A stretch of 64,000 nt of DNA from Vicinamibacteria bacterium (lineage in GTDB: Bacteria; Acidobacteriota; Vicinamibacteria; Fen-336): positions 32,391-96,390 of the forward strand of contig JAMPXO010000003.1 of the NCBI GenBank assembly GCA_023701125.1, in the 5' to 3' direction. Positions 26,742 to 42,486 of this stretch are shown here, in pieces. The first letter of the stretch is position 1, and the number at the start of each line of letters is the position of its first letter. The notes under the pieces were generated by a model. It was not told the origin of the DNA and searched no databases. It saw only the letters and a list, made by a program, of their open reading frames with translations. Made by a program: the position numbers and the translations under genes.

Positions 26742-27975
26742 CGCGCGGCTCCCTTCAGCGCCTGCACGGGATGGAGGCGGGCCAGGCGCCACGCCGGGTA
26801 GGCCCCCGACAGCACGCCGAAGAAGACGGCCAGGCCGAGGCCGAGGCCGAACGTGCGCAGGTTGAGGCCCAGTTGCGCGTAGGGGATCAGGCCGCTGTGA
26901 TTGATCGCGGCCAGCACCAGCGGCGCGGCCAGCAGGGCGAGAGCGCCACCCAGCAGCGTGAGCACGACGTTCTCCAGTACGAACTGGCCGACCAGGCTCA
27001 ACGCCGACGCGCCGAACGCCTTGCGTACGCCGATCTCCGGGGCTCGCTCCAGGATGCGGCTGACCGAGAGGTTGACCAGGTTGATCGTCGGCAGTCCCAG
27101 GAACAGCAGGGTCAGCAGGCCCAGAACGCCGACCAGCCGCTCGGGCCGGCTCTCCGCTTCGTCATGGGTGTCGAAGAGCATCCGCGAGGTGCTGGCGAAC
27201 AGGGTCTCGGGCAGCGCCAGGATGCGCTCGAACCCGGGCTCCGCCGACAGGTCGATCCGCTGCAGGCGCGATCGGAACTCGGCCTGGATCTGCGGGAAGG
27301 CCGCCGCGTCGCGGGCCAGCAGGAGCCCCCAGAAATCGCCGCCGAGTTCCTTGCGGTAGGCCTGGTCCTTGGCCGCGGAGTGCGGGACCCAGACGTCGGA
27401 GAACGGCAGGGCCCGCAGCATCGAGACGTCCGCGACGACGCCCATCACGCGGTAGTTCACCCCGTCCACCTCGACGTCGCGGCCCAGCGCTGGAGCGTCG
27501 CCGAAGATCCGCTCGCGTGTGGAACGGTTCAGCACCGCCACCCGCGAGCCCGCCTCGACCTCGGCCTCGGCGAACGGAGCGCCCTCCAGGAACTCGAACT
27601 GGAGGACCCGCCAGTACTCGGCGTCGGTGCGCTTCATGTAGAGCCGGTGCTTCTGGCCGCCCTGGTAGGAAAACGCCTCGCGCATCGTCGAGGTGATCGC
27701 CATCCGCTCGACCCCGGGCAGGTCGCGCGCGTAGCGGTCGAGCAGGCCGAAGCCGGCCGGCGAAGTCGACTGCGCGTTCTTGCCCTCCATCCGGACGTTG
27801 AAGATCAGCAGCGTGCGATCGTGGTGGACCTCCGGCGGGAACGCCCCGAACACGTTGTCGAGCAGCGCCCCGGCCACGATCAGGACGAGCAGGGTCAGCG
27901 CGATGCCGAACAGGCTGATGGCCGTGAACACCTTGCGGCGCTGGAGCACGGCCAGGGCCAGGCGCAGGTGGCTCT

Positions 27976-27982
<7 letters not shown>
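26738..27982 (-). CDS. ABC transporter permease, FtsX/MacB type
   Basis: MLKSHLRLALAVLQRRKVFTAISLFGIAL N-terminus and FtsX core ERAPEIGVRKAFGA. Confidence 0.85.
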
Positions 27983-28644
<662 letters not shown>

Positions 28645-28657
28645 CCCTGCTCCTCCG

Positions 28658-29902
28658 TCAGCGCAGCCGCAACCGGCGCGCGGTCCCGAAGGCGCTCGTG
28701 TCGGAGACGAGCACCTCCTCCCCCTCCTGCAGTCCTTCGAGCACCTCGATGTGCTCGTAGCTCGCGACGCCCAGCCGCACGCTGCGGCGGCGGGCTTCCC
28801 CGCCTTCGACCACGAACACGTCCTGCACGCCGAGCCCGGTCAGGCCCGGACCGCGCGCGACCCGCAGCACGCCGGCTCGCTGCTCGGTGAGCACCTCGAC
28901 GTCGACCCGCAGATTCGGCCGCAGCGCCGCGTCGCTGGCGTCCTCCAGGGCCACCCGGAAGCTGACCGCCCCGCCCTGCACCGAGGGCTCGACCGCGGCC
29001 ACCGTGCCGGGCAGCGCCCGCTCGCCGAGCCGCACGCGGACGGGCATCCCGGGCCGGAGGACGTTCGCGTGCACGTCCGACAACGTGGCCTGCACGCGGA
29101 ACCGGGTCAGGTCGGCGACCCGGGCCAGCACGTCGCCCGGCCGCACCGTGGAGCCCTCGTCGGTGATCACGAACGTCAGCACCCCCGCCCGCTCGGCGCG
29201 GGCGGTCGCCCGCTGCAGCGTCCGCCACGCCTCGGCCCGCTCCTGGCGCAGGGTGCCGCCCTCGAGCGCGATCTGGCGCAGCCGGGCCGCGGTGCTGGCC
29301 GCCGCGTTCTTCTGCTCGAACTCGAGCTGCGCCACCTCGATCCGGGCCTGGGCGGTCGCCAGCTCGCTCTGCTGCAGCACTTCTTCCGCGATCAGGCCCT
29401 CGGCGTGCAGCTTGCGGTTGCGGGAGAGCTGGGATTCCAGGCTGGCGAGCTGCAGGCCGCGCACGTTGCGCCGGGCCTCGAGGTCGGACTGGGTGCGCTC
29501 GAGGGCCAGTCGCTCGCGCTCCTCGTCGGTCTCGCGCAGCGAAATCTGCTGGTCGAGCCGCTCCACCGCCAGCCGCGCCGGGGCCACGTCCAGTTCCAGG
29601 ATCGGCTCGCCCGCCGCGAGGGTCGCGCCCGGGCGCTTCAGGACGCGGAGCACACGCGCCTCGACAGGGCTGGTCAGGGCCTGCTCCGACTCGGGCAGCA
29701 CCGTCCCGCTGGCGGAGAGCGAGGCCGCGAGATCGCCACGCTCCACCCGCGCGAGCCGGACGCGGTCGCGGGCGATACTCGGTCCGAACCAGTACGGAAA
29801 CGCGAACCAGGCGGTCAGGCTGGCCACGACCACAGCCGCTGCGAGGCGGATGCGGCGGCGGCGCTGGTCAGCGACGAATTCGGCGTCGAGGGGGCGGTCC
29901 AT
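28658..29902 (-). CDS. HlyD-family periplasmic adaptor (membrane fusion protein)
   Basis: N-terminal TM (IRLAAAVVVASLTAWFAF), a coiled-coil hairpin region, and beta-barrel/lipoyl-like segments. ATG 29902 is preferred over 29965 because a sigma-54 promoter lies between them. Confidence 0.8.
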   Translation of the reverse strand: MDRPLDAEFVADQRRRRIRLAAAVVVASLTAWFAFPYWFGPSIARDRVRLARVERGDLAASLSASGTVLPESEQALTSPVEARVLRVLKRPGATLAAGEPILELDVAPARLAVERLDQQISLRETDEERERLALERTQSDLEARRNVRGLQLASLESQLSRNRKLHAEGLIAEEVLQQSELATAQARIEVAQLEFEQKNAAASTAARLRQIALEGGTLRQERAEAWRTLQRATARAERAGVLTFVITDEGSTVRPGDVLARVADLTRFRVQATLSDVHANVLRPGMPVRVRLGERALPGTVAAVEPSVQGGAVSFRVALEDASDAALRPNLRVDVEVLTEQRAGVLRVARGPGLTGLGVQDVFVVEGGEARRRSVRLGVASYEHIEVLEGLQEGEEVLVSDTSAFGTARRLRLR

Positions 29903-29923
29903 GTCGGTTCCGAGCCGACGTAG

Positions 29924-29939
29924 AGCAACCGCGATGCCA
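29924..29939 (-). promoter_or_regulatory. sigma-54 (-24/-12) promoter
   Basis: The minus strand reads CTGGCATCGCGGTTGCT. This is TGGCAT-N5-TTGCT with exact GG-N10-GC spacing, about 22-37 nt upstream of ATG 29902. Confidence 0.6.
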
Positions 29940-29997
29940 GCCAGAAACCCCTGTTTCAGGGGCACTTGTGGCTGATTCCGTGCGCCTTCGGACGAAC

Positions 29998-30019
29998 GGC
30001 CGTCCGGAACCGGACGGCC
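29998..30019. promoter_or_regulatory. 22-bp perfect palindrome: terminator of the lipid operon and/or bEBP upstream activating site
   Basis: GGCCGTCCGG-AA-CCGGACGGCC. It lies 11 nt after the stop of the CDP-alcohol transferase gene and roughly 95 bp upstream of the predicted sigma-54 start site. Confidence 0.45.
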
Positions 30020-30029: not shown

Positions 30030-30773
30030 CTAGCGGGAGCGCTCGATCAAGCGCCTCGAGATCCAGATCGTGCGATGGGTCGCGGTCCAGAAGGTGCCGA
30101 CCGCGATCGCGCCGAGCACGAACAGCGACGGCGTCCCGCTCTGCCAGCCGAAGCGCTCGCACAGCGCCGTGTCGGACAGGCAGACGAGACAGGTGAGCAC
30201 GAGTCGCTCCGCGCGCTGCATCAGGCCCTCCTTGCACAGCACGCCGAGCGACTCGCCGCGGGCCCGCGCGTAGCTGACCAGCAGCGAGCCGGACAGCGCC
30301 GCGGCGGCCACCAGCGCACCGTGCTCGCGGTCGCGCAGGAAGTAGACGAAGCCGAGCAGGCAGAACACCTCGACGAAGCGGTCCAGCGTGCTGTCGATGA
30401 ACTTGCCGTAGTCCGAGTCGAGCTTGCGCGCGCGCGCGATGCGGCCGTCGAGGATGTCGCAAACGCCGCCGGCCGCGATCGCCCAGCCGCCGGCCTCGAG
30501 GTGACCGAGCCCGATGCAGACGCCCGACACCGCGCCGAAGAACAGGCCGGCGAAGTTGAACACGTCGGGCGTCGCCCCCATCGCGAGGAAGAGCCGCTCG
30601 ACCGGCCCGATCACCCACATGAACCAGTGAACCAGGAAGTTGCCCGCGCCGCCCGCGAACTGGGTGTTCTTCTTCGTGGCGTCGGCGTCGCGACCTGCGC
30701 CGGTCAGGGCGAACACGGCCATCGAGGCGAACGCGGTGCCGAAGATGGCGAGAAGGATCTGCAAGCTGCTCAT
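30030..30773 (-). CDS. CDP-alcohol phosphatidyltransferase family protein
   Basis: DILDGRIARARKLDSDYGKFIDSTLD matches the DGx2ARx8Gx3Dx3D signature. Multi-TM, 247 aa. Confidence 0.85.
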   Translation of the reverse strand: MSSLQILLAIFGTAFASMAVFALTGAGRDADATKKNTQFAGGAGNFLVHWFMWVIGPVERLFLAMGATPDVFNFAGLFFGAVSGVCIGLGHLEAGGWAIAAGGVCDILDGRIARARKLDSDYGKFIDSTLDRFVEVFCLLGFVYFLRDREHGALVAAAALSGSLLVSYARARGESLGVLCKEGLMQRAERLVLTCLVCLSDTALCERFGWQSGTPSLFVLGAIAVGTFWTATHRTIWISRRLIERSR

Positions 30774-31709
30774 CTACCGTTTCCCCCTGGAGTCCTTGGT
30801 GGCGAAGTAGCGCACGACCCGCGGCCACAGGAACACGAGCGGCCAGCGGCGCTCGCGCGGGGTCAGCTCGATCCGCTGCCCCGTGTGGCGCTCCGCCTTG
30901 CGCACGATGTAATCGAGCCAGTCGTCGAAGGTGACGACGTACTTGGCCCAGCGCAGCGTCGCGCGCAGGCGCGAGCGCTGGAAGAAGATCCACAGCCGGG
31001 CCCGCTCGGCCGAGCCGACCCGCCGCACGAGCGCGAAGCGGCCCGGCGCGACCTCGCGCAGTGCCCCCCGCGCCGCCGCCTCGGCCAGCACCGGGGCGAA
31101 CGCGGGCACCTGCTGCACCCGCTGCGCGTTCCACAGTGCCTCGGCGCGCCCGGCGGGCTCGGGCCGGATCTCGTGCCGCATCGAGACCTGCAGCGCACGA
31201 TGGCAGAACTGCTCGGCGTCGAAGCTCTCCGGCAGCCACGGCCGCGCCCAGTCCAGGGTCACCCGCCGTGCCTCGGCCAGCGCCGTGTCCGCCGCGGTCC
31301 GGGCCTGCTCGTCGGCGGCATAGACGATCGACGCGGGCTGGAACAGCCGCCCCGCGCAGAAGTGGTCGTGGCGGCGTGGCCCGGTCTCGCGCACGAGCGT
31401 CGCCAACTGGATCACCGCGCACTTCGCCGTGCGCTCGCCCGCGCGGACCCGGACCTGGTTGGGCGCCAGTACCGCGTTGATCGAAGCCGCCAGCCCGGGC
31501 GAGCGCCGGTAGGCCCCGGCTCGAACCAGCGCCTCGTAGAACGGGGCGTAGTCGGAGACCGCGACGAAGAAGTCGTAGCCGCTGTGGGGATCCGTCGGCG
31601 TGCCCGTGCGACGCGAGCCGAAGAACACGATCGCCCGCACGGCCTCCCCGCCGACCCGGGCGACCGCCGCGGCGAGGTCGCGCGCGTCCGGGGCCACCTC
31701 GCCCACCAT
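30774..31709 (-). CDS. Tam41/Mmp37-like nucleotidyltransferase (putative lipid-phosphate cytidylyltransferase)
   Basis: ATG 31709 in ORF 30774..32582. FFGSRRTG...GYDFFVAV NTase motif. AKCAVIQLATLV...FCAGRLFQP resembles Tam41 KYGVVS..TLL...YLAGRLQKP. 311 aa. Confidence 0.6.
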   Translation of the reverse strand: MVGEVAPDARDLAAAVARVGGEAVRAIVFFGSRRTGTPTDPHSGYDFFVAVSDYAPFYEALVRAGAYRRSPGLAASINAVLAPNQVRVRAGERTAKCAVIQLATLVRETGPRRHDHFCAGRLFQPASIVYAADEQARTAADTALAEARRVTLDWARPWLPESFDAEQFCHRALQVSMRHEIRPEPAGRAEALWNAQRVQQVPAFAPVLAEAAARGALREVAPGRFALVRRVGSAERARLWIFFQRSRLRATLRWAKYVVTFDDWLDYIVRKAERHTGQRIELTPRERRWPLVFLWPRVVRYFATKDSRGKR

Positions 31710-31714
31710 CGCGC

Positions 31715-32548
31715 TCAGGCCGGAAGCGCGGGCTGACCCGCCGCCGCGCCGCCCTCGGGCTCGCGGCCGCGCATCTGCGCCAGGTGCGCCCGCATGCGGG
31801 CCTCGATCTGCTCCACGAACGCCGGCAGCACCGCGGGGTCCGTCGGCGCCTCGAGCACCGCCGCGACCTCGGTCCGGCCGCGCAGGTGGTGGACGTTGGT
31901 GACGAAGTCGACGAAGGTGCGCGCCTTCCAGAAGCCGTCGGTGACGACCAGCGTGACCGGGGCGCCGGGCTGCTCGCGCAGGATCGCCAGCAACCCGCCC
32001 GTGCGGAAGCCGCCGAGCTCGCCGTTCTTCGTCCGGTGCCCCTCGGGGAACAGCGCGAAGGTGCGGGCCTGGGTCGCGGCCAGCCGCGTCAGCAGGTCGA
32101 CCGCGCCGCGCGCGTCGCGCTTCGGGTCGATCCTGGGCCCGTCGATCAGCCAGATGCCGCCGCCGACCAGCGGGACGTACCAGTGCCCGTAGCGCTGGCG
32201 GGCGATGAAAGCCGGGATCGCCGGGCTCGCCATCAGGCTCAGCGCGGGGATGTCGAGCAGCGACTGGTGGTTCATCACGACCAACCCGCGGCCGCGGGTG
32301 TCGACCTGGCCGACGCGGACGAAGCGGGCGCCGCCCAGCTTGAAGAAGAAGAAGATCCCGGTGCACGTCATGCGGAAGTACCAGAGCGCGATCCGCGACC
32401 GCCAGCCGGGCAGCAGCGCGCAGAGCGGGATCGCGAGCAGGTACATGATCGGCCCGCACGGGAACGCCATCCAGCTCAGCACGAGCAGGAACGAGACCGC
32501 GCTGCGGACCTGACGCAGGCGTTCGACGAACGACACGCCAGCCGTCAC
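31715..32548 (-). CDS. PlsC-type (lysophospholipid/1-acyl-G3P-like) acyltransferase, membrane anchored
   Basis: GTG 32548 overlaps the upstream stop (GTGA). HX4D motif NHQSLLD, plus FPEGHRT. N-terminal TM segments. Confidence 0.8.
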   Translation of the reverse strand: MTAGVSFVERLRQVRSAVSFLLVLSWMAFPCGPIMYLLAIPLCALLPGWRSRIALWYFRMTCTGIFFFFKLGGARFVRVGQVDTRGRGLVVMNHQSLLDIPALSLMASPAIPAFIARQRYGHWYVPLVGGGIWLIDGPRIDPKRDARGAVDLLTRLAATQARTFALFPEGHRTKNGELGGFRTGGLLAILREQPGAPVTLVVTDGFWKARTFVDFVTNVHHLRGRTEVAAVLEAPTDPAVLPAFVEQIEARMRAHLAQMRGREPEGGAAAGQPALPA

Positions 32549-33438
32549 GGGACCAGCACCTCCAGCGCGGCCGGCTCGACATGCACGTCGAGGGTGTCTG
32601 CGTGGGCGCGGTTCCACTCGCCGTCCGTCTCGTAGGTCGGCGCCGTCTCGAAGCGCAGCCTGAGCCGCGCGGGCTGGCCCATCTTCACGTCGGGCGCCTG
32701 CTCGTGGGTCCCGCGCAGCAGCTTGCCCATCAGCGAGAGCCGACGACCGAGGCCCATGTTGGCGAAGGCGACCGAGTCCAGCCGGCCGTCGCCGAGGTCG
32801 GCCCCGGGCGCAATCTTGAAGGCGCCGCCGAACACCCGCGCGTTGGCGACGATCAGCATCAGCAGGTCGTGGGCCTGCTCGGGCTGGTCGTCCGCGGTGA
32901 TCCACACCCGGAAGCCCGGGAAGTTCCGCAACTGGCGCAGCGCGCAGTACAGGTAGAGCAGGTCACCCTGCAGCCGGGTCACCGTCCACGAGTCCTCGAG
33001 CACGGCGACATCGAAGCCGAACCCGAGCACGTTCAGGAAGCGCTTGCCTTCGACGACGCCGACGTCCACGCGTCGCGTGCGTCCCGCGGCCAGGATGTGC
33101 AGGCACTGCCGCAGGTCCTTGCCCGGGATGCCCAGCGTCTTGACGAAATCGCAGCCCGTGCCGCCGGCGATGAAACCGAGCCGGGTCGGCTTGCCCGCCT
33201 CGAGCACGCCGTTCGCCGCATTGCCCCAGGTGCCGTCGCCGCCGACCGCGACGATCGTCCCGAAGCCCCGCGACGCCGCTTCGCGCGCCAGGCGACGCTC
33301 GTCGCCCGGCGCCTCGGTCAGGCCGTGGTCGACCTCGAAGCCCTGCGCGCGCAGCCACGAGGTGACCGGCTCGATGAGCGTGGCGCCGCGCCCCTTGCCG
33401 GAGCGCGGGTTGAACACGACGTAGTAGGACGCGGCCAC
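32545..33438 (-). CDS. DAGK_cat / YegS / LCB5-family lipid kinase
   Basis: YVVFNPRSGKGRG and IVAVGGDGTWGNAANG motifs. 297 aa, GTG start. Confidence 0.85.
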   Translation of the reverse strand: MAASYYVVFNPRSGKGRGATLIEPVTSWLRAQGFEVDHGLTEAPGDERRLAREAASRGFGTIVAVGGDGTWGNAANGVLEAGKPTRLGFIAGGTGCDFVKTLGIPGKDLRQCLHILAAGRTRRVDVGVVEGKRFLNVLGFGFDVAVLEDSWTVTRLQGDLLYLYCALRQLRNFPGFRVWITADDQPEQAHDLLMLIVANARVFGGAFKIAPGADLGDGRLDSVAFANMGLGRRLSLMGKLLRGTHEQAPDVKMGQPARLRLRFETAPTYETDGEWNRAHADTLDVHVEPAALEVLVP

Positions 33439-33466
33439 GCGAACGTCCGTCGACGCGCCCGCCCGC

Positions 33467-34135
33467 TCAGGCCGTCTGCAGCGTGAGCAGCGGGTCGAAG
33501 GTCTGCTTCCCGTTCCGCATCCAGATCTCGCGGAACGGCATCGTCGCGACCTCGCCGATCGACAGCGCCCGGTTGAAGGGATGGTCGTGCAGGACCAGCG
33601 CCCCGGTCTCTTCTTCGTGCTCGCTCTGCTCGCCCTGCATCACGATGTTGGCCTGGTAGGCCCCGGAGTCGTCCTTCATGAAGGACTGGTAGAGCTGGTC
33701 CACGGGCTGCCAGGAGTGCTCGCCGATCGACAGGTCCGCGAGCGGCGTGCCGTCGAGGGTGACCTTCGCCGCGAGCGCGCGCTCGGCGCGCACCCACTCG
33801 ATGCCGACGTCCTCCATCCAGTGCGGCAGGTGCCAGCGCTCGATCGCGTGCTCGCGCGCGGCCCGGGTCGTCGTGCCGACCATGTAGGGGTACAGCGCGA
33901 ACTTGGGCAGCCGCTCGCCGGCCTTGACGATCGGCGCGACCATCACCGACATCACGACCTCGCCGTAGGGACCCACCGAGCTCTGGTCGAAATCGAAGCA
34001 GGTCATCGCGAAGATCGACGTGCCGTGGTGCAACTCGGCCAGTTGCAGGTGATCGGGCACGATGCGCCGCGCGTTCTCGGTCGGAAACTCGAAGAAACCG
34101 GCGATGACGTCGGCGTAGCCGTAGACGGTCTTCAA
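33467..34135 (-). CDS. acetoacetate-decarboxylase-fold (ADC-like) protein, function unknown
   Basis: TTG 34135 overlaps the SPT stop (TTGA). ARRIVPDHLQL...FAMTCFDFDQSSVGPYGEVVMSVMV resembles the ADC-family N-terminal beta pattern. The ADC catalytic KK motif is not evident. Confidence 0.45.
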   Translation of the reverse strand: MKTVYGYADVIAGFFEFPTENARRIVPDHLQLAELHHGTSIFAMTCFDFDQSSVGPYGEVVMSVMVAPIVKAGERLPKFALYPYMVGTTTRAAREHAIERWHLPHWMEDVGIEWVRAERALAAKVTLDGTPLADLSIGEHSWQPVDQLYQSFMKDDSGAYQANIVMQGEQSEHEEETGALVLHDHPFNRALSIGEVATMPFREIWMRNGKQTFDPLLTLQTA

Positions 34136-35415
34136 CGGATGATGCCCTCCTCGCGGAGCACGCCCGCGATGACGTGAACGGCCGTCTCGAGATCCTCCTC
34201 GCTGTGCGCCGCCGAGACCGAGACGCGAAGCCGCGACTTGTGCTTCGGCACGGCCGGGTAGGTCACGGGCTGCAGGAACAGGCCACGGTCCTGGACCTTC
34301 TCGGCGACCGCGAACACGCGAGCGTCGTTGTTGACCATCACCGGCATCACCTGCGAGGTCGACTTGCCGATGTCGACGCCTTCCTCCGCGAAGCGGCGGC
34401 GCAGGTAGGCGACGTTCGACCACAGCTTGGTGCGGAGCTGCGGCTCGGACTGGGCGATGCGCAGGCCGGCCAGCAGCCCGGCCGCGACGGGCGGCGCCAG
34501 GTTGCAGGAGAAGAAGCGCGAGCGGCCGAAGGCGTTGACGTAGTCGATCAGGTCGCGGCTGCCGCACACGAAGCCGCCCTGCCCGCCCAGGCTCTTGGAG
34601 AACGTGCCGAGGTGGAAGTCGATCTCGTTGTCGAGCCCGAAGTGCTCCGCCACGCCGCGGCCGTTGGGGCCGAACAGGAACGTGGAGTGCGCCTCGTCGA
34701 TCAGGATGCGAGCGCCGTGGCGCTTGGCCACCTCGACGATCTCGGGCAGCACGCAGACGTCGCCGTCCATCGAGTAGACGCCCTCGACCACGACCAGCTT
34801 CTTGCCCTTGGCCTTCTGCAGCTTGCGCTCGAGGTCGAGCGGGTTGTTGTGGCGGAACCAGAGCGTGTTCGACTTGGCCAGGATCGCGCCGTCGACGATC
34901 GACGCGTGCGAGTACTGGTCGAGGATGATGTAGTCGCCCGAGCGCATCAGCGCGGCGATGAAGCCCACGTTCGCCGAGTAGCCGGTCGGGAACAGGATCG
35001 CGGCTTCCTTGTCCTTGAACTCGGCCATCTCGCGGGCCAGGTCGAGGTGGACCTGCAGGGTCCCGGACAGCATCGGGGAGCCCGAGGCGCCCAGGCCGTA
35101 GAGGTTGGTGGCATCGATCGCCGCCTGCTTGACCTCGGGCCGGTAGGAGATGCCCAGGTAGTTGTAGGAGGCGAGGTTGATCAGGTCCTGGATGCGGCCG
35201 GTCTTGCGGTTGCGGACCCTGACCCGGGACTCCGGGGCGGTCTGCAGCGGCTCGGAGTAGAGGTAGTAGCCGTTCGGCAACGCCTCGCGATACCACTCGT
35301 TGAACGGACCGAGCAGGTTCAGCGGGTCGTCGCCCGCGCCGTAATAGAAATTGCTGTAGTCGTACTCGGCGAACGTCGACGACTTCCCGGGGTCCTTGCC
35401 GTGGACCGGATCCAT
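34132..35415 (-). CDS. spt: alpha-oxoamine synthase, serine-palmitoyltransferase-like
   Basis: ATG 35415 preceded by AAGGAG. LASYNYLGISY (SPT-type SYNYLG), DEAHS, PLP lysine in GTFSKSLGG. 427 aa. Confidence 0.7.
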   Translation of the reverse strand: MDPVHGKDPGKSSTFAEYDYSNFYYGAGDDPLNLLGPFNEWYREALPNGYYLYSEPLQTAPESRVRVRNRKTGRIQDLINLASYNYLGISYRPEVKQAAIDATNLYGLGASGSPMLSGTLQVHLDLAREMAEFKDKEAAILFPTGYSANVGFIAALMRSGDYIILDQYSHASIVDGAILAKSNTLWFRHNNPLDLERKLQKAKGKKLVVVEGVYSMDGDVCVLPEIVEVAKRHGARILIDEAHSTFLFGPNGRGVAEHFGLDNEIDFHLGTFSKSLGGQGGFVCGSRDLIDYVNAFGRSRFFSCNLAPPVAAGLLAGLRIAQSEPQLRTKLWSNVAYLRRRFAEEGVDIGKSTSQVMPVMVNNDARVFAVAEKVQDRGLFLQPVTYPAVPKHKSRLRVSVSAAHSEEDLETAVHVIAGVLREEGIIR

Positions 35416-35462
35416 AGGGCGGTCTCCTTGTGCGCCACGCACCACCGGCACGCGGCAGCGGG

Positions 35463-35471
35463 ATTCTACCA
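35463..35471 (-). promoter_or_regulatory. possible extended -10 (TGGTAGAAT) in front of spt
   Basis: The minus strand reads ...GGCTGGTAGAATCCC... about 47 nt upstream of the spt ATG, inside the 130-nt SDR-spt gap. No good -35 element. Confidence 0.3.
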
Positions 35472-35545
35472 GCCCCGGCCAGCGGCCGGAAGCGCCCACT
35501 GCGGCAAATCGCCGGACGGCTTGGACTTGCGGCGCAGGGAATGCG

Positions 35546-36343
35546 TCAGCGCGGTCGGAACAACTCCCCCGCCAGGCGCCGGGTCAGGCTGCGTGGCACC
35601 AGCGACTGGGCCGCCACGGTGAGCCGGTTCTGCAGGCCGGGGATCACGACCAGGGTCCCCCGCTCCAGGCCGGCGAGCGAGGCGGCCACCACGTCCTCGG
35701 GAGGACTGGCCGGGGTCTTGTCGAACAGCACCTTGTCGGTGCCGGCGACCTGCTGGAACTCCGTCTTGATGTTCCCGGGACAGAGCGCCTGGACGCGGAC
35801 GCCGGTCCCCTCCAGCTCCACTGCCAGCGACTCGGTGAACGAGAGCAGAAACGACTTGGAGGCGGCGTAGACGGCGAAGAACGGCACCGGCTGGAACGCG
35901 GACATCGACACCACGTTGACCACCCGGCCGCGACCGCGGGCGGCCATCGCCGGCACCAGCCGCGCGCACAACTCCACGGTGGTCCGCACGTTCAGGTCGA
36001 TCACCTCCAGCGACGCTTCGACGGGACGTTCGACGAAACGGCCCGTGTCGCCGCGCCCCGCGTTGTTGACGAGCAGGTCGATCTCCCGACCCCGCTTGCC
36101 CAACTCGGCCTCCAGCCGCGCGGGGCCTTCGGGTCGGGCGAGGTCCAGGGTGATGACGTCCACCTGGTCTGCCCCGCCGAGTTCCTCCTGCAGAGCCCTC
36201 AGCCGTTCGACCCGCCGGGCCACCACCACGACCCGCTCGCCGCGGCTGACCAGGGCGCGCGCGAAGGCGGCGCCGATCCCGCTCGACGCGCCCGTGACCA
36301 GCGCCCAAGGCCCGTCCGCCGACTTGTTTCGCCCTCGCGCCAT
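35546..36343 (-). CDS. classical short-chain dehydrogenase/reductase (3-ketosphinganine-reductase-like by context)
   Basis: ATG 36343 in ORF 35546..37183. Motifs TGASSGIG, NNAG and YAASK. 265 aa. Confidence 0.8.
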   Translation of the reverse strand: MARGRNKSADGPWALVTGASSGIGAAFARALVSRGERVVVVARRVERLRALQEELGGADQVDVITLDLARPEGPARLEAELGKRGREIDLLVNNAGRGDTGRFVERPVEASLEVIDLNVRTTVELCARLVPAMAARGRGRVVNVVSMSAFQPVPFFAVYAASKSFLLSFTESLAVELEGTGVRVQALCPGNIKTEFQQVAGTDKVLFDKTPASPPEDVVAASLAGLERGTLVVIPGLQNRLTVAAQSLVPRSLTRRLAGELFRPR

Positions 36344-36517
36344 GCCGCGTCCCTCTTCGGCGAGCGCCCACCCGGAACCGCGGGTCCGTCGCGCTCGTCG
36401 CGGGGCGACAATAGCAGACGGTCCCGCGGGCTTTAGGCTATGCTCCGCCTTCCGCCGCGGGCCGTCGGCCCGGGTACCAAGGGCGCCCCGAAACCGAAGA
36501 GACCTCGAAGACCCGCA

Positions 36518-37624
36518 ATGGCCAACCTCGCCGCCGCCAACGTGATGCACCGCAAGACCCGGACCCTCGTCTCGGTGCTGGCGGTGGCGATGGAAGTCGC
36601 GATGGTGATGGTGCTGGTCGGGCTGGCCAGCGGCACCCTGGGCGAGATCGCCGACCGCCTCCAGAACGTGGGGGCCGACGTGCTGTTCCAGCCGCCGGAC
36701 GCCTCGCTGCTGCTGGGCGCCACGGCCGCCGTGATGCCGGTGAAGTACATCGACATCATGAAGACCGTCCCGGGCGTGGTCGAGGCCACCCCCGTGCTCA
36801 ACTGGCACGTCTCCAAGGTCAAGGGCGAGACCCGGGCGATCAACCTGTGGGCGATCGACTACCCCTCCTTCACCCGCATCTCGGGCGGCTTCGACCTGCT
36901 CGAGGGCCGCGGCCTTGAGCAGCCCCACGACCTCGTGATCGACACCGTGCTGGCCAACGCCAGCGGCCTGCAGGTCGGCGAGGCGATGCCGATGATGAAC
37001 CGCGAGTTCCGCGTCGCCGGCATCTGCCGCGCGGGCGCGGGCGGCCGGCTGTACGCCCGCATCGAGGACGTGCAGGAGGCGATCGGGGAGCCGGGCAAGG
37101 CCTCGTTCTTCCTGGTCAAGGGCACCGACTCGAAGCAGGCCGACGCGCTGGCGCAGGCGCTCCAGGAGAAGTTCAAGGGCCACAAGATCACGCCCGTCGC
37201 CCAGGTTTCGAGGGCGATGCAGGAGAACGCGATCGGCCTCCAGCAGTTCAAGGAAGCGCTGACCGGGATGGCCGTCATCATCTCGTTCATGGTGGTACTG
37301 CTGGCCATGTACACCACGATCATCGAGCGCACCCGCGAGATCGGCATCCTGCGCGCGATCGGCGCGACCCAGGGCAAGGTCGTGCAGTACGTCGTGGCCG
37401 AGAGTTTCCTGATCTGCCTGGCCGGCGTGCTGCTCGGCAACGCACTGGCGGTCAGTGCGCAGTGGCTGCTACCGAAGATTTTCCCGATGCTGAACATCGC
37501 CTTGAGCCGCGAGTGGGCGCTGATCGCCGCCGCTCTCGGCCTCGTCGGCGGGCTGCTCGGCGCGATCTACCCTGCGATCAAGGCCGCCCGCCTCGACCCC
37601 GTGCAAGCACTCAATTTCGAGTAA
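36518..37624 (+). CDS. orphan FtsX/MacB-type ABC permease (no adjacent ATPase)
   Basis: ATG 36518 in ORF 36440..37624. N-terminal TM, periplasmic domain, and FtsX core ERTREIGILRAIGAT. Confidence 0.8.
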   Translation: MANLAAANVMHRKTRTLVSVLAVAMEVAMVMVLVGLASGTLGEIADRLQNVGADVLFQPPDASLLLGATAAVMPVKYIDIMKTVPGVVEATPVLNWHVSKVKGETRAINLWAIDYPSFTRISGGFDLLEGRGLEQPHDLVIDTVLANASGLQVGEAMPMMNREFRVAGICRAGAGGRLYARIEDVQEAIGEPGKASFFLVKGTDSKQADALAQALQEKFKGHKITPVAQVSRAMQENAIGLQQFKEALTGMAVIISFMVVLLAMYTTIIERTREIGILRAIGATQGKVVQYVVAESFLICLAGVLLGNALAVSAQWLLPKIFPMLNIALSREWALIAAALGLVGGLLGAIYPAIKAARLDPVQALNFE

Positions 37625-37654: not shown

Positions 37655-38269
37655 ATGAAACTTCTCAATACCCTGATCGAGAAGGTCTCCGACCACCCGG
37701 TGCTGTTCATCTTCTTCCGGGCGATCCTGGAGAACGATTTCAAGGCGATCCGTGCGGTGATCCGGCGCGAGTTGAACCTCGGCCCCGGCCAGCGGACCCT
37801 GGACCTCGGCTGCGGGCCCGGCGCCTTCTCGGACCTGTTCGAGAAGCACGACTACGTCGGCGCCGACCTCAACAAGCGCTACATCGACTACGCCCGCGAG
37901 CACCGCCGCGGCACGTTCATCGCCTCTGACGCGCGCAAGGTGGACCTGCCGGACGCCCGCTTCGACCAGGTGCTGATCTTCGGCCTGCTCCACCACCTCT
38001 CGGACGAGGACACGCGGGCCGTGTTGTCGGAGGCGCGGCGCATGGTCGTCCCCGGCGGCGTGATCCTGGCGATCGAGGACATCCCGGCCCAGCATCGGCT
38101 CAACCTGATCGGCCACCTGCTGCACGCGATCGAGAACGGCGAGCACATCCGCCCGACCGCGGACTACAAGGGGCTGTACGCCGAGGCCGGCACGATCGAA
38201 CTCGAAGAAGAACTGCGCAGTGGCGTCTGCGACTACTACGTCGCGCGGATTCGCACGCCCAGGGTGTGA
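37655..38269 (+). CDS. class I SAM-dependent methyltransferase
   Basis: SAM motif I LDLGCGPGAF and post-I DLNKRYIDYA. 204 aa. Its stop overlaps the next start (GTGA). Confidence 0.8.
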   Translation: MKLLNTLIEKVSDHPVLFIFFRAILENDFKAIRAVIRRELNLGPGQRTLDLGCGPGAFSDLFEKHDYVGADLNKRYIDYAREHRRGTFIASDARKVDLPDARFDQVLIFGLLHHLSDEDTRAVLSEARRMVVPGGVILAIEDIPAQHRLNLIGHLLHAIENGEHIRPTADYKGLYAEAGTIELEEELRSGVCDYYVARIRTPRV

Positions 38270-40266
38270 GCGGCCGGCGCCTCGCCGGCACGCTGGCCTG
38301 GGCGCTCGCCGCCGCCGTGCTGGCGGTCGCCGGCCTCGCTGCGGGGTTGCGGCAGGCGCGCCCGCTGGTGCTCGACCTGGGGCCCAACGACGCGGCGCAA
38401 CTTGCCGGCTTCCGCGAGGACTGGGAGCGCGAGGGATCGGTCGCGTTCCGCTGGACGACGCTGCGCTCGGAGGTGCGCTTCCCCTTCGCGCTCGCCGAGC
38501 CCGGGGGCCGCGTCGTACTCCGCTATCGGCGCCACTTCGACGACCCCGCTCGGGTGCGCATCGTCTCCGCGGGCGCCACGGTCGTTCAGTTCGAGGCCAG
38601 GGCCGATCGCAAGAGCCCCTACCTCGAGCTCGAGGCTCCGCTCGGCGCGACGCGCGGGCCGCTCACGCTGGTGTTCGAGTCCCACGTCACCAACGAGCGC
38701 CCGCTGGGCATCGCTCTCGACTGGGTGCGGGTCGAAGGCCGAGGCGGCTACCAGACGACGGGAAGCCTGTCCGTCGCGGTCGCCCTGCTGGCGGCAGGCA
38801 CCGTGTTGCTCGTCGCGGCCGCCGGGGCTCCGGCCCTCCCGGCCGCGGCGGCCGGATTGCTGGTTGCGGCGGCGATCGGACTGGGCGGCTGGTGGGACCC
38901 GATGGCACTGGACCGGATCGTCCAGGGCGGCCTGGCGCCGTGGCTGCTCACGGGTGCGGCTGCGGTCCTGCTGCTCCGGGCGCGGCCGTCCTCGGCCTGG
39001 CTGCGTGTCGAAGTCGCGCACCGGCCCGCGCTGCTCGCGCTGGCCCTCGTGGCGCTGGCTGTGCGGCTCGTGCTGGTGCTCCACCCCCGCTTCTACTACC
39101 CGGACGTGCGCACCCATGCGCTCTTCGCGGGACAACTCGCCCGCCACGGGCTCGAGCGCTTCTTGCAGGGCTTCACCGAGAACCAGTTCCGCTACTCGCT
39201 GGGCATCCAGCTCGAGGGCGATCACTGGTACGCGTTCCCCTACCCGCCGCTGTTCTACGTCTTCGCCCAGCCCCTGATCGGATTGTTCCGCCTCGCGCCC
39301 GAGCTCGCCGTCTCGGCGCTGCCGGCGATGGTCAACGCGCTCGAGGTGCTGCTCGTCTACGCGCTCGCCCGTCGCCTGGCGGCCGTCGCGCCGCTGCGCG
39401 CCGCGGCGCTCGTGGTGGTGCTACCGATCTTCCTGGCCCGGGCGTCGCTGGCGCTCTTCCCCGCCCTGGTCGGCCATGCCCTCGATACGTTGCTGCTGGT
39501 CTGCCTGCTCGACCTGTTCCAGGCCGCGCGCCCTCGCGTCCGCAGCGGGGTCGTGTCGGGCCTGCTGCTGGCGACGGCCTTGCTGGCGTACACACAGGGC
39601 GTCCTGAACTTCGGCCTGCTGCTGCCGCTGGTGCTGGCCTGGGATTTTTTCGCGGACCGCACGCCGACGGGCCGCGATCGGCAACGGGCTCTGCTGACCG
39701 CGGGCGTCCTCGGTGTGACGCTGGCAGCCGGGCTCTTCTACGCGCGCTACGTGCCGGTGTTCGTGGACATGCAGCGGGGCATCCCCCAGCCCGAGGAGCG
39801 CATCTGGCTGGAGTTGCAGGAGCGGCGGGCGCTGCAGGGGGACGACGATCAGCCCGAGGAGCCCAACGACCCCTACGCCGCCCCGACGTTCGAGGCCACC
39901 CGGGGGCTGGCCAAGGCGGGCTCGCGCTTGTGGATTTTCTGGGGCCCGTTCGCGCTCCTGCTACCGGTCGGGGTGGGACTACTGGCCGCGGGCGAAGCCG
40001 CGGCCAGCCGGCGCTTCCTGATCGCGTGGGCCAGCCTCTACATCGTGCTGAACTTCGCATCCGGCAGCCTGCCCGGCCCGAACCTCTTCCGCCACAGCAA
40101 GGACGTCGAGGTCGTCGCGCCGCTCTGCGCGCTCTCTCTCTCTCTCGCCGGCTCCGGGCCCCGCTCGCGCCTGGCGTGGCGCGCGGTATGGATGGCCTTC
40201 GTCGTCTACGCAGCCTGGCGAGTCGTCGAGATCTACGGGCGCATCACACCCGCTCCGTTGCCCTAG
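38266..40266 (+). CDS. large polytopic membrane protein, GT-C/PMT_2-like, with N-terminal extracytoplasmic domain
   Basis: 666 aa. An N-terminal TM is followed by a ~150-aa soluble domain and then more than 10 hydrophobic segments. HPRFYYPDVRTHA loop motif. Confidence 0.55.
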   Translation: MSGRRLAGTLAWALAAAVLAVAGLAAGLRQARPLVLDLGPNDAAQLAGFREDWEREGSVAFRWTTLRSEVRFPFALAEPGGRVVLRYRRHFDDPARVRIVSAGATVVQFEARADRKSPYLELEAPLGATRGPLTLVFESHVTNERPLGIALDWVRVEGRGGYQTTGSLSVAVALLAAGTVLLVAAAGAPALPAAAAGLLVAAAIGLGGWWDPMALDRIVQGGLAPWLLTGAAAVLLLRARPSSAWLRVEVAHRPALLALALVALAVRLVLVLHPRFYYPDVRTHALFAGQLARHGLERFLQGFTENQFRYSLGIQLEGDHWYAFPYPPLFYVFAQPLIGLFRLAPELAVSALPAMVNALEVLLVYALARRLAAVAPLRAAALVVVLPIFLARASLALFPALVGHALDTLLLVCLLDLFQAARPRVRSGVVSGLLLATALLAYTQGVLNFGLLLPLVLAWDFFADRTPTGRDRQRALLTAGVLGVTLAAGLFYARYVPVFVDMQRGIPQPEERIWLELQERRALQGDDDQPEEPNDPYAAPTFEATRGLAKAGSRLWIFWGPFALLLPVGVGLLAAGEAAASRRFLIAWASLYIVLNFASGSLPGPNLFRHSKDVEVVAPLCALSLSLAGSGPRSRLAWRAVWMAFVVYAAWRVVEIYGRITPAPLP

Positions 40267-41105
40267 TCGGCCGCCTTCTCCAGGTCCTCGAGGATGCGGC
40301 GCAGGGCCGCGATGACCTCGTCGCGGGAGACCTCGGTCTTGCGGAACTTCAGGTCGAGAGCGAAGGTCTTCTCGGCTGGCTGAAACTGGAACACGTAGTT
40401 CCGGGGCCGTCCCGGCTTCTTCGAGACCTCCTTCGCGGCCCGGCGTGCGACCTCGCGAGTGCCGCCGCCCTCCTGGATTTTTTTGATGAGGGACAGCATC
40501 TTACCCGGGTCTCCCTGCCGAACTACTTGAAGCAGGAGGGACTTCGACTGGATGTCCGCCAGGCGACACAGCTCCCGGATATCGGCCGGCATCGAGGTCA
40601 GCGACAGCATCTCGGTGACGGAGGTCCGGCTCTTGCCCAGCCGCTCGGCCATCAGCTCGTGCGTGTAGCCGTAGCTCTCGGCCAGTTGCTTGAGACCGTC
40701 TGCCTCCTCGAAGGCGCTCAGGTCCTTGCGCTGGAGGTTCTCGATCAGCGCGATCTCGGTGACCTCGGCGTCCGAGCACTCCCGGATCACACAGGGCACC
40801 TCGTCGAGTTCGGCCTCGCGAGCCGCGCGAAAGCGCCGCTCACCCGCGATGATCTGGTAGCGCCCGCCTTGGGGCCGAACCAGGATCGGCTCCAGCACGC
40901 CCTTCTCGCGGACCGAAGCGACCAGTTCAGCCAGGTCTCCGATCTCGCGCCGGGGCTGATCCGGGTTCGGGTCGATCTGGTCGAGCGCGATCAGGCGGCC
41001 GATCGGCTCGCCCGGAGTCCGTCCGAGTTGCTCGACGAAGTGCGTGTCGTGGCGCATGCGGAGCGAACCCGGCAGCCCGAAACGGCGCGCGGCGGTGTTA
41101 GACAC
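40263..41105 (-). CDS. parB: ParB/Spo0J chromosome partitioning protein
   Basis: IIAGERRFRAA ParB box and the HTH region GKSRTSVTEMLSL. GTG 41105 overlaps the parA stop by 8 nt. The longer ORF to 41261 is rejected. Confidence 0.85.
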   Translation of the reverse strand: MSNTAARRFGLPGSLRMRHDTHFVEQLGRTPGEPIGRLIALDQIDPNPDQPRREIGDLAELVASVREKGVLEPILVRPQGGRYQIIAGERRFRAAREAELDEVPCVIRECSDAEVTEIALIENLQRKDLSAFEEADGLKQLAESYGYTHELMAERLGKSRTSVTEMLSLTSMPADIRELCRLADIQSKSLLLQVVRQGDPGKMLSLIKKIQEGGGTREVARRAAKEVSKKPGRPRNYVFQFQPAEKTFALDLKFRKTEVSRDEVIAALRRILEDLEKAAD

Positions 41106-41859: not shown

Positions 41860-41934
41860 CTCGTCAAGGCTGGAGAACGTGCAGGAGCGGATCGTAGGGG
41901 ACTCGATCCGTGGGGTCAAGGGGAGAAGGCACCC

Positions 41935-42426: not shown

Positions 42427-42486
42427 GCAGTCCTCCGCTCGGCAATATAGGCGGGCCGGAAGTGAGCGTCAATGAAGTGTTTGCGG

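Follow-up and report, generated by a model that had tools for sequence, protein, structure and literature searches.

The locus described here raises the question of whether a bacterium can join sphingoid-base synthesis to CMP-dependent head-group chemistry within a single operon. It comes from an uncultured soil Acidobacterium (Vicinamibacteria) and lies at positions 30030-36343 of the 64,000-nt stretch of DNA that we analysed (the window), where seven minus-strand genes are tightly packed (Table 1). On re-reading the minus strand, every junction was as originally claimed: g2 and g3 overlap by TTGA (34132-34135) and g4 and g5 by GTGA (32545-32548), and gaps of 28, 5 and 0 nt separate g3/g4, g5/g6 and g6/g7 (30773/30774), respectively. 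Genes called independently on a Logan contig were the same seven, and GC3 is 0.91-0.97 across all seven frames. The g1/g2 spacer matched no Rfam family and no sigma-70-type promoter. The hairpin past g7 folds, in a 71-nt context, at -40 kcal/mol (z -3.1 against shuffles); it is without a T-tract, so that it is not a canonical intrinsic terminator, and it marks a possible end of the operon.

Table 1. Features of the operon, in order of transcription (window coordinates).
Feature	Position	Strand	Start	Description
g1	35546-36343	-	ATG	Classical short-chain dehydrogenase (SDR), 265 aa
g1/g2 spacer	35416-35545	-		130 nt; ribosome-binding site AAGGAGA at 35423-35429
g2	34132-35415	-	ATG	SPT-type alpha-oxoamine synthase (AOS), 427 aa
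g3	33467-34135	-	TTG	ADC-fold protein, 222 aa; start overlaps g2 stop
g4	32545-33438	-	GTG	Soluble YegS/DgkB/BmrU-family lipid kinase, 297 aa
g5	31715-32548	-	GTG	Membrane PlsC/LPLAT-type acyltransferase, 277 aa
g6	30774-31709	-	ATG	Tam41-like nucleotidyltransferase, 311 aa
g7	30030-30773	-	ATG	PIP/AIP-synthase-type CDP-alcohol phosphatidyltransferase, 247 aa
GC-rich hairpin	29998-30019	-		11 nt past g7 stop; 9-bp perfect stem

Profile searches bore out six of the family assignments (SDR, AOS, ADC fold, YegS/DgkB-type kinase, PlsC-type acyltransferase and CDP-alcohol transferase). The Pfam profiles expected for five of the proteins were recovered, and the motifs quoted for these five were all found in the translations: adh_short in g1 (E 1e-49; TGASSGIG, NNAG, YAASK), Aminotran_1_2 in g2 (E 4e-55; SYNYLG, GTFSKSLGG), DAGK_cat with YegS_C in g4 (DAGK_cat E 1e-29; VAVGGDGT), Acyltransferase in g5 (E 8e-14; NHQSLLD, FPEGHRT and, additionally, FIARQR) and CDP-OH_P_transf in g7 (E 5e-13; DGRIAR-x8-G-x3-D-x3-D). 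The ADC profile expected for g3 was sub-threshold in g3 itself but above threshold in an orthologue. None of g2, g6 and g7 reaches the curated NCBIfam/Pfam cut-off of the family it resembles.

The co-conservation foreseen for related genomes was borne out in several phyla. Among 50 complete (sufficiently long) related loci from Acidobacteriota, Latescibacteria, Krumholzibacteriia, Gemmatimonadota and Acidimicrobiia, anchored on g6, g2 is present in 49 and g3, g4 and g7 in all 50; when g3 is the anchor, g4 accompanies it in 20/20 loci, g6 and g7 each in 19/20, and g2 in 28/28. Flanking genes are not conserved past close relatives, and since the same genes stay together in 50/50 loci while the flanks vary, the arrangement is more than chance. 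Two layouts occur, a colinear one (36 loci) and a divergent one, whose first arm carries the kinase, AOS, ADC-like and reductase genes and whose second arm carries the acyltransferase, Tam41-like and transferase genes. There are also fusions between members (YegS_C::g6, g6::CDP-OH and, in P0121, P0123, P0134 and P0139, acyltransferase::g6), and in one metagenomic locus (L152) g4 is followed directly by g7, without g6.

We consider it likely that one conserved lipid pathway joins sphingoid-base synthesis to CMP/inositol-phosphate head-group chemistry. Its more specific form, a phospho-inositol sphingolipid operon that would work through a CMP-activated sphingolipid, placing CDP-diacylglycerol logic on a sphingoid backbone, is the reading that we prefer, with belief and doubt evenly weighed. 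In this scheme, the SPT-type PLP enzyme g2 would make 3-ketosphinganine from serine and a long-chain acyl thioester, and the ketone would be reduced by g1, or by a Zn-dehydrogenase in other lineages. The long-chain base would then be phosphorylated at C1 by g4, giving a product that resembles lysophosphatidate, and its C2 amine acylated by the PlsC-like g5 to ceramide-1-phosphate, which resembles phosphatidate. Finally, the Tam41-like g6 would move CMP from CTP to form CDP-ceramide, and g7 would swap the CMP for inositol-1-phosphate, yielding ceramide-phospho-inositol-phosphate. An unlinked phosphatase may trim this product to inositol phosphoceramide; the cluster itself has no phosphatase. 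No bCerS-type ceramide synthase, IPC synthase (PAP2) or ACP was found in or near the cluster; only a CDP-lipid route makes the gene set self-sufficient. The literature that we searched holds no description of the gene set or of "CDP-ceramide".

The head-group end of the scheme depends on g7. Its best NCBIfam matches, all under cut-off, are the archaetidylinositol-phosphate synthase (120 bits), BT1523 PIP synthase (110 bits) and PIP synthase (96 bits) models, and its best PDB matches are the PIP synthases 5d92 and 6h53. It shares with the mycobacterial and archaeal PIP/AIP synthases (PgsA1, RsPIPS, AIPS) the signature D-x2-D-G-x2-A-R-x8-G-x3-D-x3-D and the conserved S/K/R/R inositol-phosphate site, the binding residues S132, K135, R155 and R195 of MtPIPS corresponding to S167, R170, R190 and R234 of g7; its length of 247 aa, too, fits the six-helix class that uses a soluble acceptor. 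It differs from them in scoring under their equivalog cut-offs and in the replacement of a proline, P153 of MtPIPS, which packs against the CDP-DAG acyl chain and is an alanine in g7. Judging from these residues, the acceptor is most likely inositol-1-phosphate, which narrows the unspecified polar alcohol for which CMP was predicted to be exchanged. Because the acceptor is probably inositol phosphate, the CMP-activated partner must be a lipid, one that we infer and that is probably neither CDP-DAG nor CDP-archaeol. Against the scheme, no inositol-1-phosphate synthase turned up in the window or less than 10 kb from any of about 150 related loci.

For g6, the predicted resemblance to Tam41 held at the level of the fold, but the expected Tam41_Mmp37 profile match was absent, as was any other Pfam or NCBIfam match. 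Its AF2 model (pLDDT 88) has as best Foldseek PDB matches the Tam41 structures 6ig2 and 6ig4 and the Firmicutes Tam41 7ecd (E 2e-8 to 4e-8, TM 0.52-0.66), and a fused homologue (P0134) scores 29 bits with Tam41_Mmp37 (gathering score 24); on this predicted structure and one homologue, Tam41 is the family that g6 matches best. Like the Tam41/Mmp37 CDP-DAG synthases of mitochondria and Firmicutes (7ECD), g6 is predicted to consist of a nucleotidyltransferase domain with a helical domain behind it; its nucleotidyltransferase motif, too, contains just one invariant acidic residue (D46, after G31-S32), and it would act immediately upstream of a CDP-alcohol phosphatidyltransferase. Unlike them, its gene is linked to that of an SPT-like enzyme and, at about 12% identity, it falls into a distinct, unnamed family, which has invariant residues of its own and 764 or more representative sequences. 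It is the only nucleotidyltransferase of the cluster. We know of no Tam41 substrate other than phosphatidate.

The kinase g4 scores 155 bits with TIGR00147 (cut-off 118.65) and shows 26% identity (E 4e-27) with the DAGK-family gene adjoining the Parabacteroides SPT. Its type is present in 50/50 loci, always within the AOS module, and as divergent loci transcribe it in the AOS arm, we place it on the sphingoid side. To our knowledge, kinases of this family act only on DAG, PG or sphingoid substrates; precedents exist in a bacterial ceramide kinase, CpgB, and a dihydrosphingosine kinase. The acyltransferase g5 has retained the motifs by which a phosphorylated acceptor is held. Genes of its type are found in 36/50 complete loci and are absent from 13 of the 36 colinear clusters, so that it is not a universal ceramide-forming step. 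PlsC-type enzymes are known as O-acyltransferases, and N-acylation by g5 is an assumption. The order first proposed, acylation and then phosphorylation, is not favoured: the divergent layout puts the kinase in one transcript with the AOS module and the PlsC-like gene in one with the Tam41-like gene, to which it is sometimes fused, which together with the g5 motifs points to phosphorylation before acylation.

Inositol sphingolipids of Bacteroides thetaiotaomicron involve the SPT BT_0870, the MIPS BT_1526, the PIP synthase BT_1523, the PIP phosphatase BT_1525 and the PI-dihydroceramide synthase BT_1522 (Heaver et al. 2022, PMC9246714). Both systems have an SPT-type enzyme together with a CDP-alcohol transferase of PIP-synthase type that uses inositol phosphate, and both likely end in an inositol phosphosphingolipid; also, Bacteroidales SPT genes adjoin a DAGK-family kinase gene, as g4 accompanies g2. 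In Bacteroides, however, the inositol cluster lies apart from SPT, the housekeeping CdsA supplies CDP-DAG, and an AUR1-like enzyme passes phospho-inositol from PI to ceramide, whereas our operon lacks MIPS, PgpA-like phosphatase and AUR1-like genes and groups the SPT-like gene with kinase, PlsC-like acyltransferase and Tam41-like cytidylyltransferase genes. The ceramide (di)phosphoglycerate pathway of Caulobacter crescentus (Spt, ACP, bCerS, CerR, the ceramide kinase CpgB and the CTP:phosphoglycerate cytidylyltransferase CpgD; PMC10331486, PMC12275187) similarly follows sphingolipid synthesis with a DAGK-fold lipid kinase and CTP-dependent activation for head-group attachment. There, the head group is activated (CDP-glycerate) and not the lipid, whereas the cytidylyltransferase of the operon has the predicted, lipid-phosphate-acting Tam41 fold; the GNAT-type bCerS, NDUFA9-like CerR and dedicated ACP families are missing from the operon.

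As the main alternative, one already raised at the outset, the operon could hold two ordinary modules: g1-g3 would make a sphingoid base, and g4-g7 would be a dedicated line from DAG or lysophosphatidate through phosphatidate and CDP-DAG to phosphatidylinositol phosphate. The lines would meet later, PI being the phospho-inositol donor to ceramide via an unlinked IPC-synthase-like enzyme, or a mere partner lipid. Indeed, Tam41 enzymes, one bacterial included, make CDP-DAG, which PIP synthases use, DgkB-type kinases phosphorylate DAG and PlsC acylates lysophosphatidate; clusters lacking g5 are still complete for DAG (kinase, Tam41-like, PIPS-like), and Bacteroides needs the PIP-synthase route and BT_1522 for its inositol phosphoceramide. 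We nevertheless regard this as rather unlikely, because divergent loci invariably carry the kinase in the AOS arm and never in the Tam41/transferase arm, co-occurrence is near-exceptionless across several phyla whichever side is the anchor, and the CDP-DAG synthase and PlsC of this line would be redundant with the housekeeping ones. Moreover, no IPC synthase, ceramide synthase or PIP phosphatase was found in or near any related locus, to which the alanine at the MtPIPS P153 position may be added as a weak point.

The CMP-activated sphingolipid reading takes g2 for an SPT. Among PDB sequences, it scores best against the SPTs of Sphingobacterium (300 bits) and Sphingomonas (254 bits), compared with 216 bits for KBL and 190 bits for BioF; the PLP lysine, His, Asp and His are conserved, and the N-terminal aromatic segment that lines the Sphingobacterium SPT acyl pocket aligns with g2. 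In a small NJ tree with 15 references, the AOS proteins of the cluster grouped with the reference SPTs, apart from BioF, KBL and ALAS, as had been predicted: their clade (100% support) falls inside a group with all reference SPTs that has moderate (74%) bootstrap support. It is a deep clade of its own, with only 30% support for a sister relation to Sphingomonas SPT, the one tree reference sharing the YNY motif of g2. For g1, the best NCBIfam match is a mycolate (long-chain beta-keto lipid) reductase (158 bits, under cut-off), making it a candidate 3-ketosphinganine reductase. The g1-type SDR is present in 34/50 complete loci overall and in 33/36 colinear ones; in the divergent layout a Zn-MDR dehydrogenase, weakly TDH-like, takes its place, and this non-orthologous swap indicates that ketoreduction beside an amine is required. 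As in the eukaryotic/Bacteroides order (SPT, then an SDR-type 3-ketosphinganine reductase), a classical SDR adjoins the SPT-like gene, implying that the free base is reduced before acylation; the operon family differs in that a Zn-dependent medium-chain dehydrogenase replaces the SDR in other phyla and an ADC-fold protein is always interposed.

It is improbable, in our view, that the AOS is something other than an SPT. On that reading, the amino acid joined to the acyl thioester would be glycine, alanine or threonine in place of serine, or the enzyme would work in a KBL-like manner without decarboxylation; g3 would process the amino-keto (acid) compound so formed, and the product, no true sphingolipid, would be either an amino-alcohol phospholipid of non-canonical type or some smaller metabolite. 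In its favour, g2 falls under the curated cut-off of every SPT model (NCBIfam), with near-equal scores for bioF and BioF/Kbl-related models (363, 354 and 351 bits), its clade is deep, a decarboxylase-fold protein is translationally coupled to the AOS in every locus, and the usual partner of KBL is threonine dehydrogenase, which the replacement reductase weakly resembles. On the other hand, the tree and the acyl-pocket segment place g2 with the SPTs, the downstream enzymes are all membrane-lipid enzymes, and the Schiff-base lysine of true ADCs is apparently an invariant histidine in g3 (from secondary-structure register and profile coordinates), which makes classical beta-keto-acid decarboxylation unlikely. 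Found in 50/50 complete loci, g3 is an obligatory partner that probably acts with the SPT-like enzyme, and it has no place in the proposed scheme.

That the seven genes are unrelated neighbours and the pathway only apparent is scarcely credible, since, against the general caution that adjacency is not function, stand the overlapping or abutting reading frames, the fusions between members and co-occurrence in 49-50 of 50 loci across several phyla, two layouts and varying flanks. In keeping with the main reading, soil ceramides have been found to correlate with a Vicinamibacteraceae ASV (PMC9969633). If the proposed pathway is true, the operon would represent a previously undescribed route to inositol phosphosphingolipids, one that passes by way of a CMP-activated sphingolipid.

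The seven minus-strand genes of the operon (g1 to g7, numbered 5' to 3') were defined by ORF reading in a window of 65-75% G+C, and GC3 was 0.91-0.97 across all seven frames. Genes called separately on a public 8.9-kb Logan contig, the one hit of an exact look-up of the window proteins, make up the identical set. The tight packing described in the original prediction was borne out: a 130-nt spacer parts g1 from g2, g2 and g3 overlap by TTGA, g3 and g4 are 28 nt apart, g4 and g5 overlap by GTGA, and 5 nt and 0 nt separate g5 from g6 and g6 from g7. The ribosome-binding site AAGGAGA stands 5' of g2, and a GC-rich hairpin follows the last gene. A promoter scan of the operon found none, a terminator scan gave chance-level matches only, and the Rfam scan returned no family.

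We scanned for the g6 family, taking one genome per species, and obtained 70 loci, all from uncultured organisms. The carriers are mostly Vicinamibacteria and other Acidobacteriota, together with Latescibacteria, Krumholzibacteriia, Eisenbacteria, Gemmatimonadota and Acidimicrobiia. Presence of the other genes was counted in the 50 of these 70 loci with enough flanking DNA. Co-conservation, which had been proposed as a check on the operon, was observed: g2-g4 and g7 accompany g6 in 49-50 of the 50 loci, and the reverse scan, with g3 as the anchor in metagenome contigs, agrees (g4 in 20/20, g6 in 19/20, g7 in 19/20 and g2 in 28/28). Flanking genes are common to close relatives only. The cluster is present on the complete MAG chromosomes OY970399.1 (4.09 Mb), CBDFGD010000002.1 (5.1 Mb) and CAVPGH010000001.1 (3.6 Mb).

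Features of the operon (genes from ORF reading) and occurrence of each gene in g6-anchored loci
Feature	Position	Strand	Loci with gene (of 50)	Remark
g1, SDR	35546-36343	-	34	
g2, alpha-oxoamine synthase (AOS)	34132-35415	-	49	
g3, ADC fold	33467-34135	-	50	
g4, lipid kinase	32545-33438	-	50	
g5, PlsC-type acyltransferase	31715-32548	-	36	
g6, Tam41-like	30774-31709	-		
g7, CDP-alcohol transferase	30030-30773	-	50	
GC-rich hairpin	29998-30019			past g7 stop

The clusters take two layouts, one colinear, as in the window, and one divergent. In the latter, one arm holds the AOS, the ADC-like gene, the kinase and a Zn-dependent medium-chain dehydrogenase, and the other, in the opposite direction, the acyltransferase, the Tam41-like gene and the transferase; independent gene calls with Pfam labels upheld this arrangement. 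The acyltransferase is missing in 13 of 36 colinear clusters. In one metagenomic locus (L152:2403-6967), a g7 homologue comes straight after g1, g2, g3 and g4, with no g5 and no g6. The Tam41-like domain is also found fused to an acyltransferase, the kinase C-terminal domain, a CDP-alcohol transferase, a P450 or an NTP-transferase. The cytochrome P450 fusions are the g6 homologues P0132 and P0146 (L088:714-2984), and in locus L088 a CDP-alcohol transferase gene comes next.

Several other genes occur around the clusters. A radical SAM gene of ~350 aa lies on the same strand and ends less than 400 nt before g1 in 27 of the 52 loci holding g1 (L004, L008, L010-L014, L017-L019, L025, L063, L097, L098, L103, L105, L106, L112, L117, L122, L131, L141-L143, L149, L152 and L158), and such a gene is also found near divergent-layout clusters (L170:10469-11485 and L047). 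Its product has a generic MoaA/PqqE-like core with weak likeness to the lipid-modifying Tes and HpnH. The gene is absent from the window and may count as an optional eighth member, with a role in modifying the lipid. A VTT/DedA-family membrane gene stands beside divergent clusters (L169:2383-2943, L170:9865-10506, L061 ~5539-6072 and L047 ~12221-12790); proteins of this family have been implicated in lipid flipping. In the window itself, the operon has parts of a MacB/FtsX-type ABC exporter on either side (36440-37624, plus strand, and 25530-29965, minus strand): an ATPase, an HlyD-type adaptor, a permease and two more FtsX permeases. We rejected them as members of the system: they are probably outside it, because just 2-13 of the 70 loci from genomes keep them beside the cluster. 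Further along, on the plus strand, a class I SAM methyltransferase gene (37655-38269) shares its last 4 nt with a gene (38266-40266) for a polytopic membrane protein of 666 aa that matched nothing in Pfam or NCBIfam, and this pair was found near the cluster in 13-18 related loci. Genes for ParB, ParA, a MiaB/RimO-like methylthiotransferase and a RecN-like protein on the g1 side (40263-45675, minus strand) keep their synteny in 10-30 related loci, which places the operon in a conserved chromosomal neighbourhood, with no obvious mobile island.

Compared with solved structures, g2 matched the serine palmitoyltransferase (SPT) of Sphingobacterium best (300 bits), with 254 bits for Sphingomonas SPT and 245, 230, 216 and 190 bits for Thermus BioF/KBL, ALAS, KBL and BioF. 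In the alignment with Sphingobacterium SPT, g2 has every one of its PLP-binding and catalytic residues (His138, Asp210, His213, Thr241, Ser243, Lys244 within GTFSKSL, and Gly80-Ser81), and the YNY form of the N-terminal motif was seen in g2 and Sphingomonas SPT only. The protein scored under all curated SPT cut-offs (NF047600, 363 bits against 640; NF047599, 335 against 500; NF047603, 272 against 670), and the bioF model gave 354 bits (cut-off 426). In a neighbour-joining tree (387 columns, 200 bootstraps) with a small set of annotated references from plasmid and E. coli records and PDB alignments, the AOS proteins of this cluster type form a single clade with 100% bootstrap, inside a 74% group that takes in all the reference SPTs and leaves out KBL, BioF and ALAS. 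The enzyme thus falls on the Spt side rather than the BioF/KBL side, as had been predicted. We regard g2 as an SPT-like enzyme with a lineage of its own, whose amino-acid substrate is a prediction. A further relative is encoded on a plasmid of Streptomyces sp. NBC_00158 (NZ_CP108162.1 398646-399761); annotated 'bifunctional SDR family oxidoreductase/pyridoxal phosphate-dependent', this product is an SDR fused to an AOS, with 37.6% identity to g2.

The first gene, g1, encodes a classical SDR (Pfam adh_short, E 1e-49), and its closest curated model, under cut-off, is a long-chain beta-keto-lipid reductase of mycolate synthesis. Where this SDR is absent, a Zn-dependent medium-chain dehydrogenase of ~407 aa with weak threonine 3-dehydrogenase likeness follows the kinase (L042:4805-6028, L049:5079-6299, L055:4935-6149, L169:2940-4184 and nine more divergent-layout loci). 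This dehydrogenase takes over the reductase step as a non-orthologous replacement.

The lipid kinase g4 passes the YegS/Rv2252/BmrU model TIGR00147 (155 bits, cut-off 118.65), carries DAGK_cat and YegS_C domains with the GGDG motif as VAVGGDGT, and finds DgkB, BmrU and YegS in the PDB. Its sequence points to a YegS/DgkB/BmrU-type lipid kinase with a lipid substrate that is itself predicted. Ceramide kinases and dihydrosphingosine kinases with this fold have been described in bacteria (PMC10331486). In Parabacteroides distasonis (NZ_OY725812.1, L073:1789-4146) an SPT gene is divergent beside a 'diacylglycerol kinase family protein' 26% identical to g4, so that SPT and a lipid kinase are linked outside this cluster type as well. 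The next gene, g5, is of the PlsC type, with the motifs NHQSLLD (HX4D), FIARQR and FPEGHRT and a Pfam score of 52 bits (cut-off 23), and is under the cut-off of the AGPAT subfamily (36.6 against 103). In GPAT and LPAAT enzymes, motifs of the FIARQR and FPEGHRT types hold the acceptor phosphate; we know of no precedent for N-acylation by a PlsC-type enzyme.

The sole nucleotidyltransferase of the operon is g6, whose protein matches, at 100% identity, a hypothetical protein from a metagenome-assembled genome of Vicinamibacteria (Acidobacteriota). Pfam and NCBIfam scans gave no family for it even at E 1, just a 14.5-bit Polbeta match, and PF09139 (Tam41_Mmp37) was likewise unmatched at E 1; among its homologues, the fused protein P0134 passes PF09139 (29 bits, gathering score 24) and P0138 is sub-threshold at 14.5 bits. 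Since sequence-profile searches of the PDB returned nothing for g6 and g3, structure prediction was needed for both. The AF2 model of g6 (pLDDT 88) has Tam41, including the bacterial one, as all of its top five Foldseek matches in the PDB (E 2e-8 to 5e-7, TM 0.52-0.66), followed by aminoglycoside nucleotidyltransferases (E 1e-4, TM below 0.35). The Tam41 assignment originally made for g6 is upheld by the predicted fold, and the profile match expected along with it was not found. Tam41 is reported to have only one of the three acidic residues usual in nucleotidyltransferases (PMC11646218). By the family alignment, g6 proteins have an invariant G31-S32 and then one invariant Asp46 in that segment, and would resemble Tam41 in having one acidic residue in the nucleotidyltransferase motif.

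In profile searches g3 gave a sub-threshold ADC match and an orthologue exceeded the threshold; the ADC fold was found for g3. Strand order and profile coordinates would put P104-H105 of g3 at P114-K115 of Clostridium ADC, with an invariant histidine in the place of the Schiff-base lysine; there is no lysine within residues 95-110. An hhalign comparison of the g3 family with Clostridium ADC paired K78 with K115 at 1.5% probability and was set aside because it is at odds with the strand order of the model. We do not read g3 as a classical beta-keto-acid decarboxylase, since the Schiff-base lysine (K115) appears to be missing.

The CDP-alcohol signature D-x2-D-G-x2-A-R-x8-G-x3-D-x3-D is present in g7 as CDILDGRIARARKLDSDYGKFIDSTLD, and the protein scored 50 bits on the Pfam family (cut-off 22). 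It is under the curated equivalogs for archaetidylinositol-phosphate synthase (120 bits against 180), the BT1523 type (110 against 350) and phosphatidylinositol-phosphate synthase (96 against 170), and its nearest curated or solved relatives are archaeal, Bacteroides and mycobacterial synthases that use inositol phosphate. In MtPIPS, mutagenesis has shown that S132, K135, R155 and R195 bind inositol phosphate (PMC4634129), and in a phmmer alignment to 6h53 these residues align with S167, R170, R190 and R234 of g7. The polar alcohol, which the original prediction left unnamed, would by these residues be inositol phosphate; as g7 retains the acceptor site for it, the CMP-activated substrate should be the lipid. 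Neither the 64-kb window nor the flanks of ~150 related loci contained a homologue of inositol-1-phosphate synthase (MIPS), and no phosphatase was found near the cluster. At a single locus (L170:13708-15081), ~4 kb beyond the CDP-alcohol transferase gene, come a PIG-L-family fragment and a GT4 glycosyltransferase, a pairing that recalls the GlcNAc-inositol chemistry of GPI and mycothiol synthesis.

These assignments can be arranged in a six-step scheme. An SPT-like condensation by g2 would be followed by ketoreduction by g1 or the Zn-dehydrogenase, and g4 would phosphorylate the base at C1. The product, sphinganine-1-phosphate, a lysophosphatidate look-alike, would then be N-acylated by g5 to ceramide-1-phosphate, to which g6 would transfer CMP, yielding CDP-ceramide; finally, g7 would swap CMP for inositol-1-phosphate. 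The scheme uses each assigned gene once and in operon order. Its weak points are the colinear clusters that lack g5, the L152 locus, the N-acylation asked of a PlsC-type enzyme, the lack of a nearby MIPS or phosphatase, and g3, which has no place in it. We give an even chance to this specific CDP-sphingolipid route, in which we infer each step. The alternative, that g4-g7 are a dedicated line from DAG to PIP, seems to us unlikely. We favour a sphingoid-type rather than a DAG-type lipid phosphate as the substrate of g6 because the kinase is always in the AOS arm, because the acyltransferase is in the Tam41-like arm and sometimes fused, because no ceramide synthase, IPC synthase or ACP stands beside the cluster in any lineage, and because the two arms are almost never apart. 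The CDP-activated phosphosphingolipid pathway first proposed for the operon is therefore supported in part, its head group sharpened to inositol phosphate and its order of acylation before phosphorylation less likely than the reverse.

That known bacterial ceramide routes use other gene sets was confirmed, as none of the sets compared matches the operon. The Bacteroides route differs in keeping its inositol genes in a cluster apart and in using AUR1-like transfer from PI, and that of Caulobacter in its ACP, bCerS, CerR and CDP-activated head group; no Caulobacter-type ACP, GNAT-type bCerS or NDUFA9-like CerR was found among g1-g7 or their conserved neighbours. A Sphingomonas comparison locus has an ACP and an NAD(P)H-binding protein beside Spt. 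Tam41 is known with phosphatidate only; the g6 gene is linked to one for an SPT-like enzyme. To our knowledge, all known head-group routes transfer from a glycerophospholipid or sugar nucleotide to ceramide or, in Caulobacter, use a CDP-activated head group. A full-text literature search found no paper on 'CDP-ceramide', and none on Tam41 with sphingolipid, ADC with SPT or Acidobacteria with SPT that describes the cluster. The cluster is an undescribed combination of known enzyme families, and it predicts a new intermediate.

We tentatively propose, at slightly less than an even chance, that several uncultured soil and sediment lineages make inositol phosphosphingolipids by a sphingolipid counterpart of the CDP-diacylglycerol pathway, through CDP-ceramide, with the ADC-fold protein as a new accessory or catalytic component of sphingoid-base synthesis. 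Acidobacteriota are among the most abundant soil bacteria. A soil lipidome study found a correlation between ceramides and a Vicinamibacteraceae sequence variant, and its authors asked whether Acidobacteriota make sphingolipids (PMC9969633). If our proposal is true, it would supply a genetic basis for such lipids in Acidobacteriota and add Latescibacteria, Krumholzibacteriia, Gemmatimonadota and Acidimicrobiia to the groups able to make sphingolipids. Ceramide activated with CMP would amount to a third head-group logic and a new lipid nucleotide, and the g6 proteins, with at least 764 representative sequences, would make up a new family of Tam41-like enzymes in bacteria. The system is widespread among abundant uncultured bacteria and its key claim is testable with seven small genes; if it holds, the attribution of environmental ceramides and inositol lipids would change.
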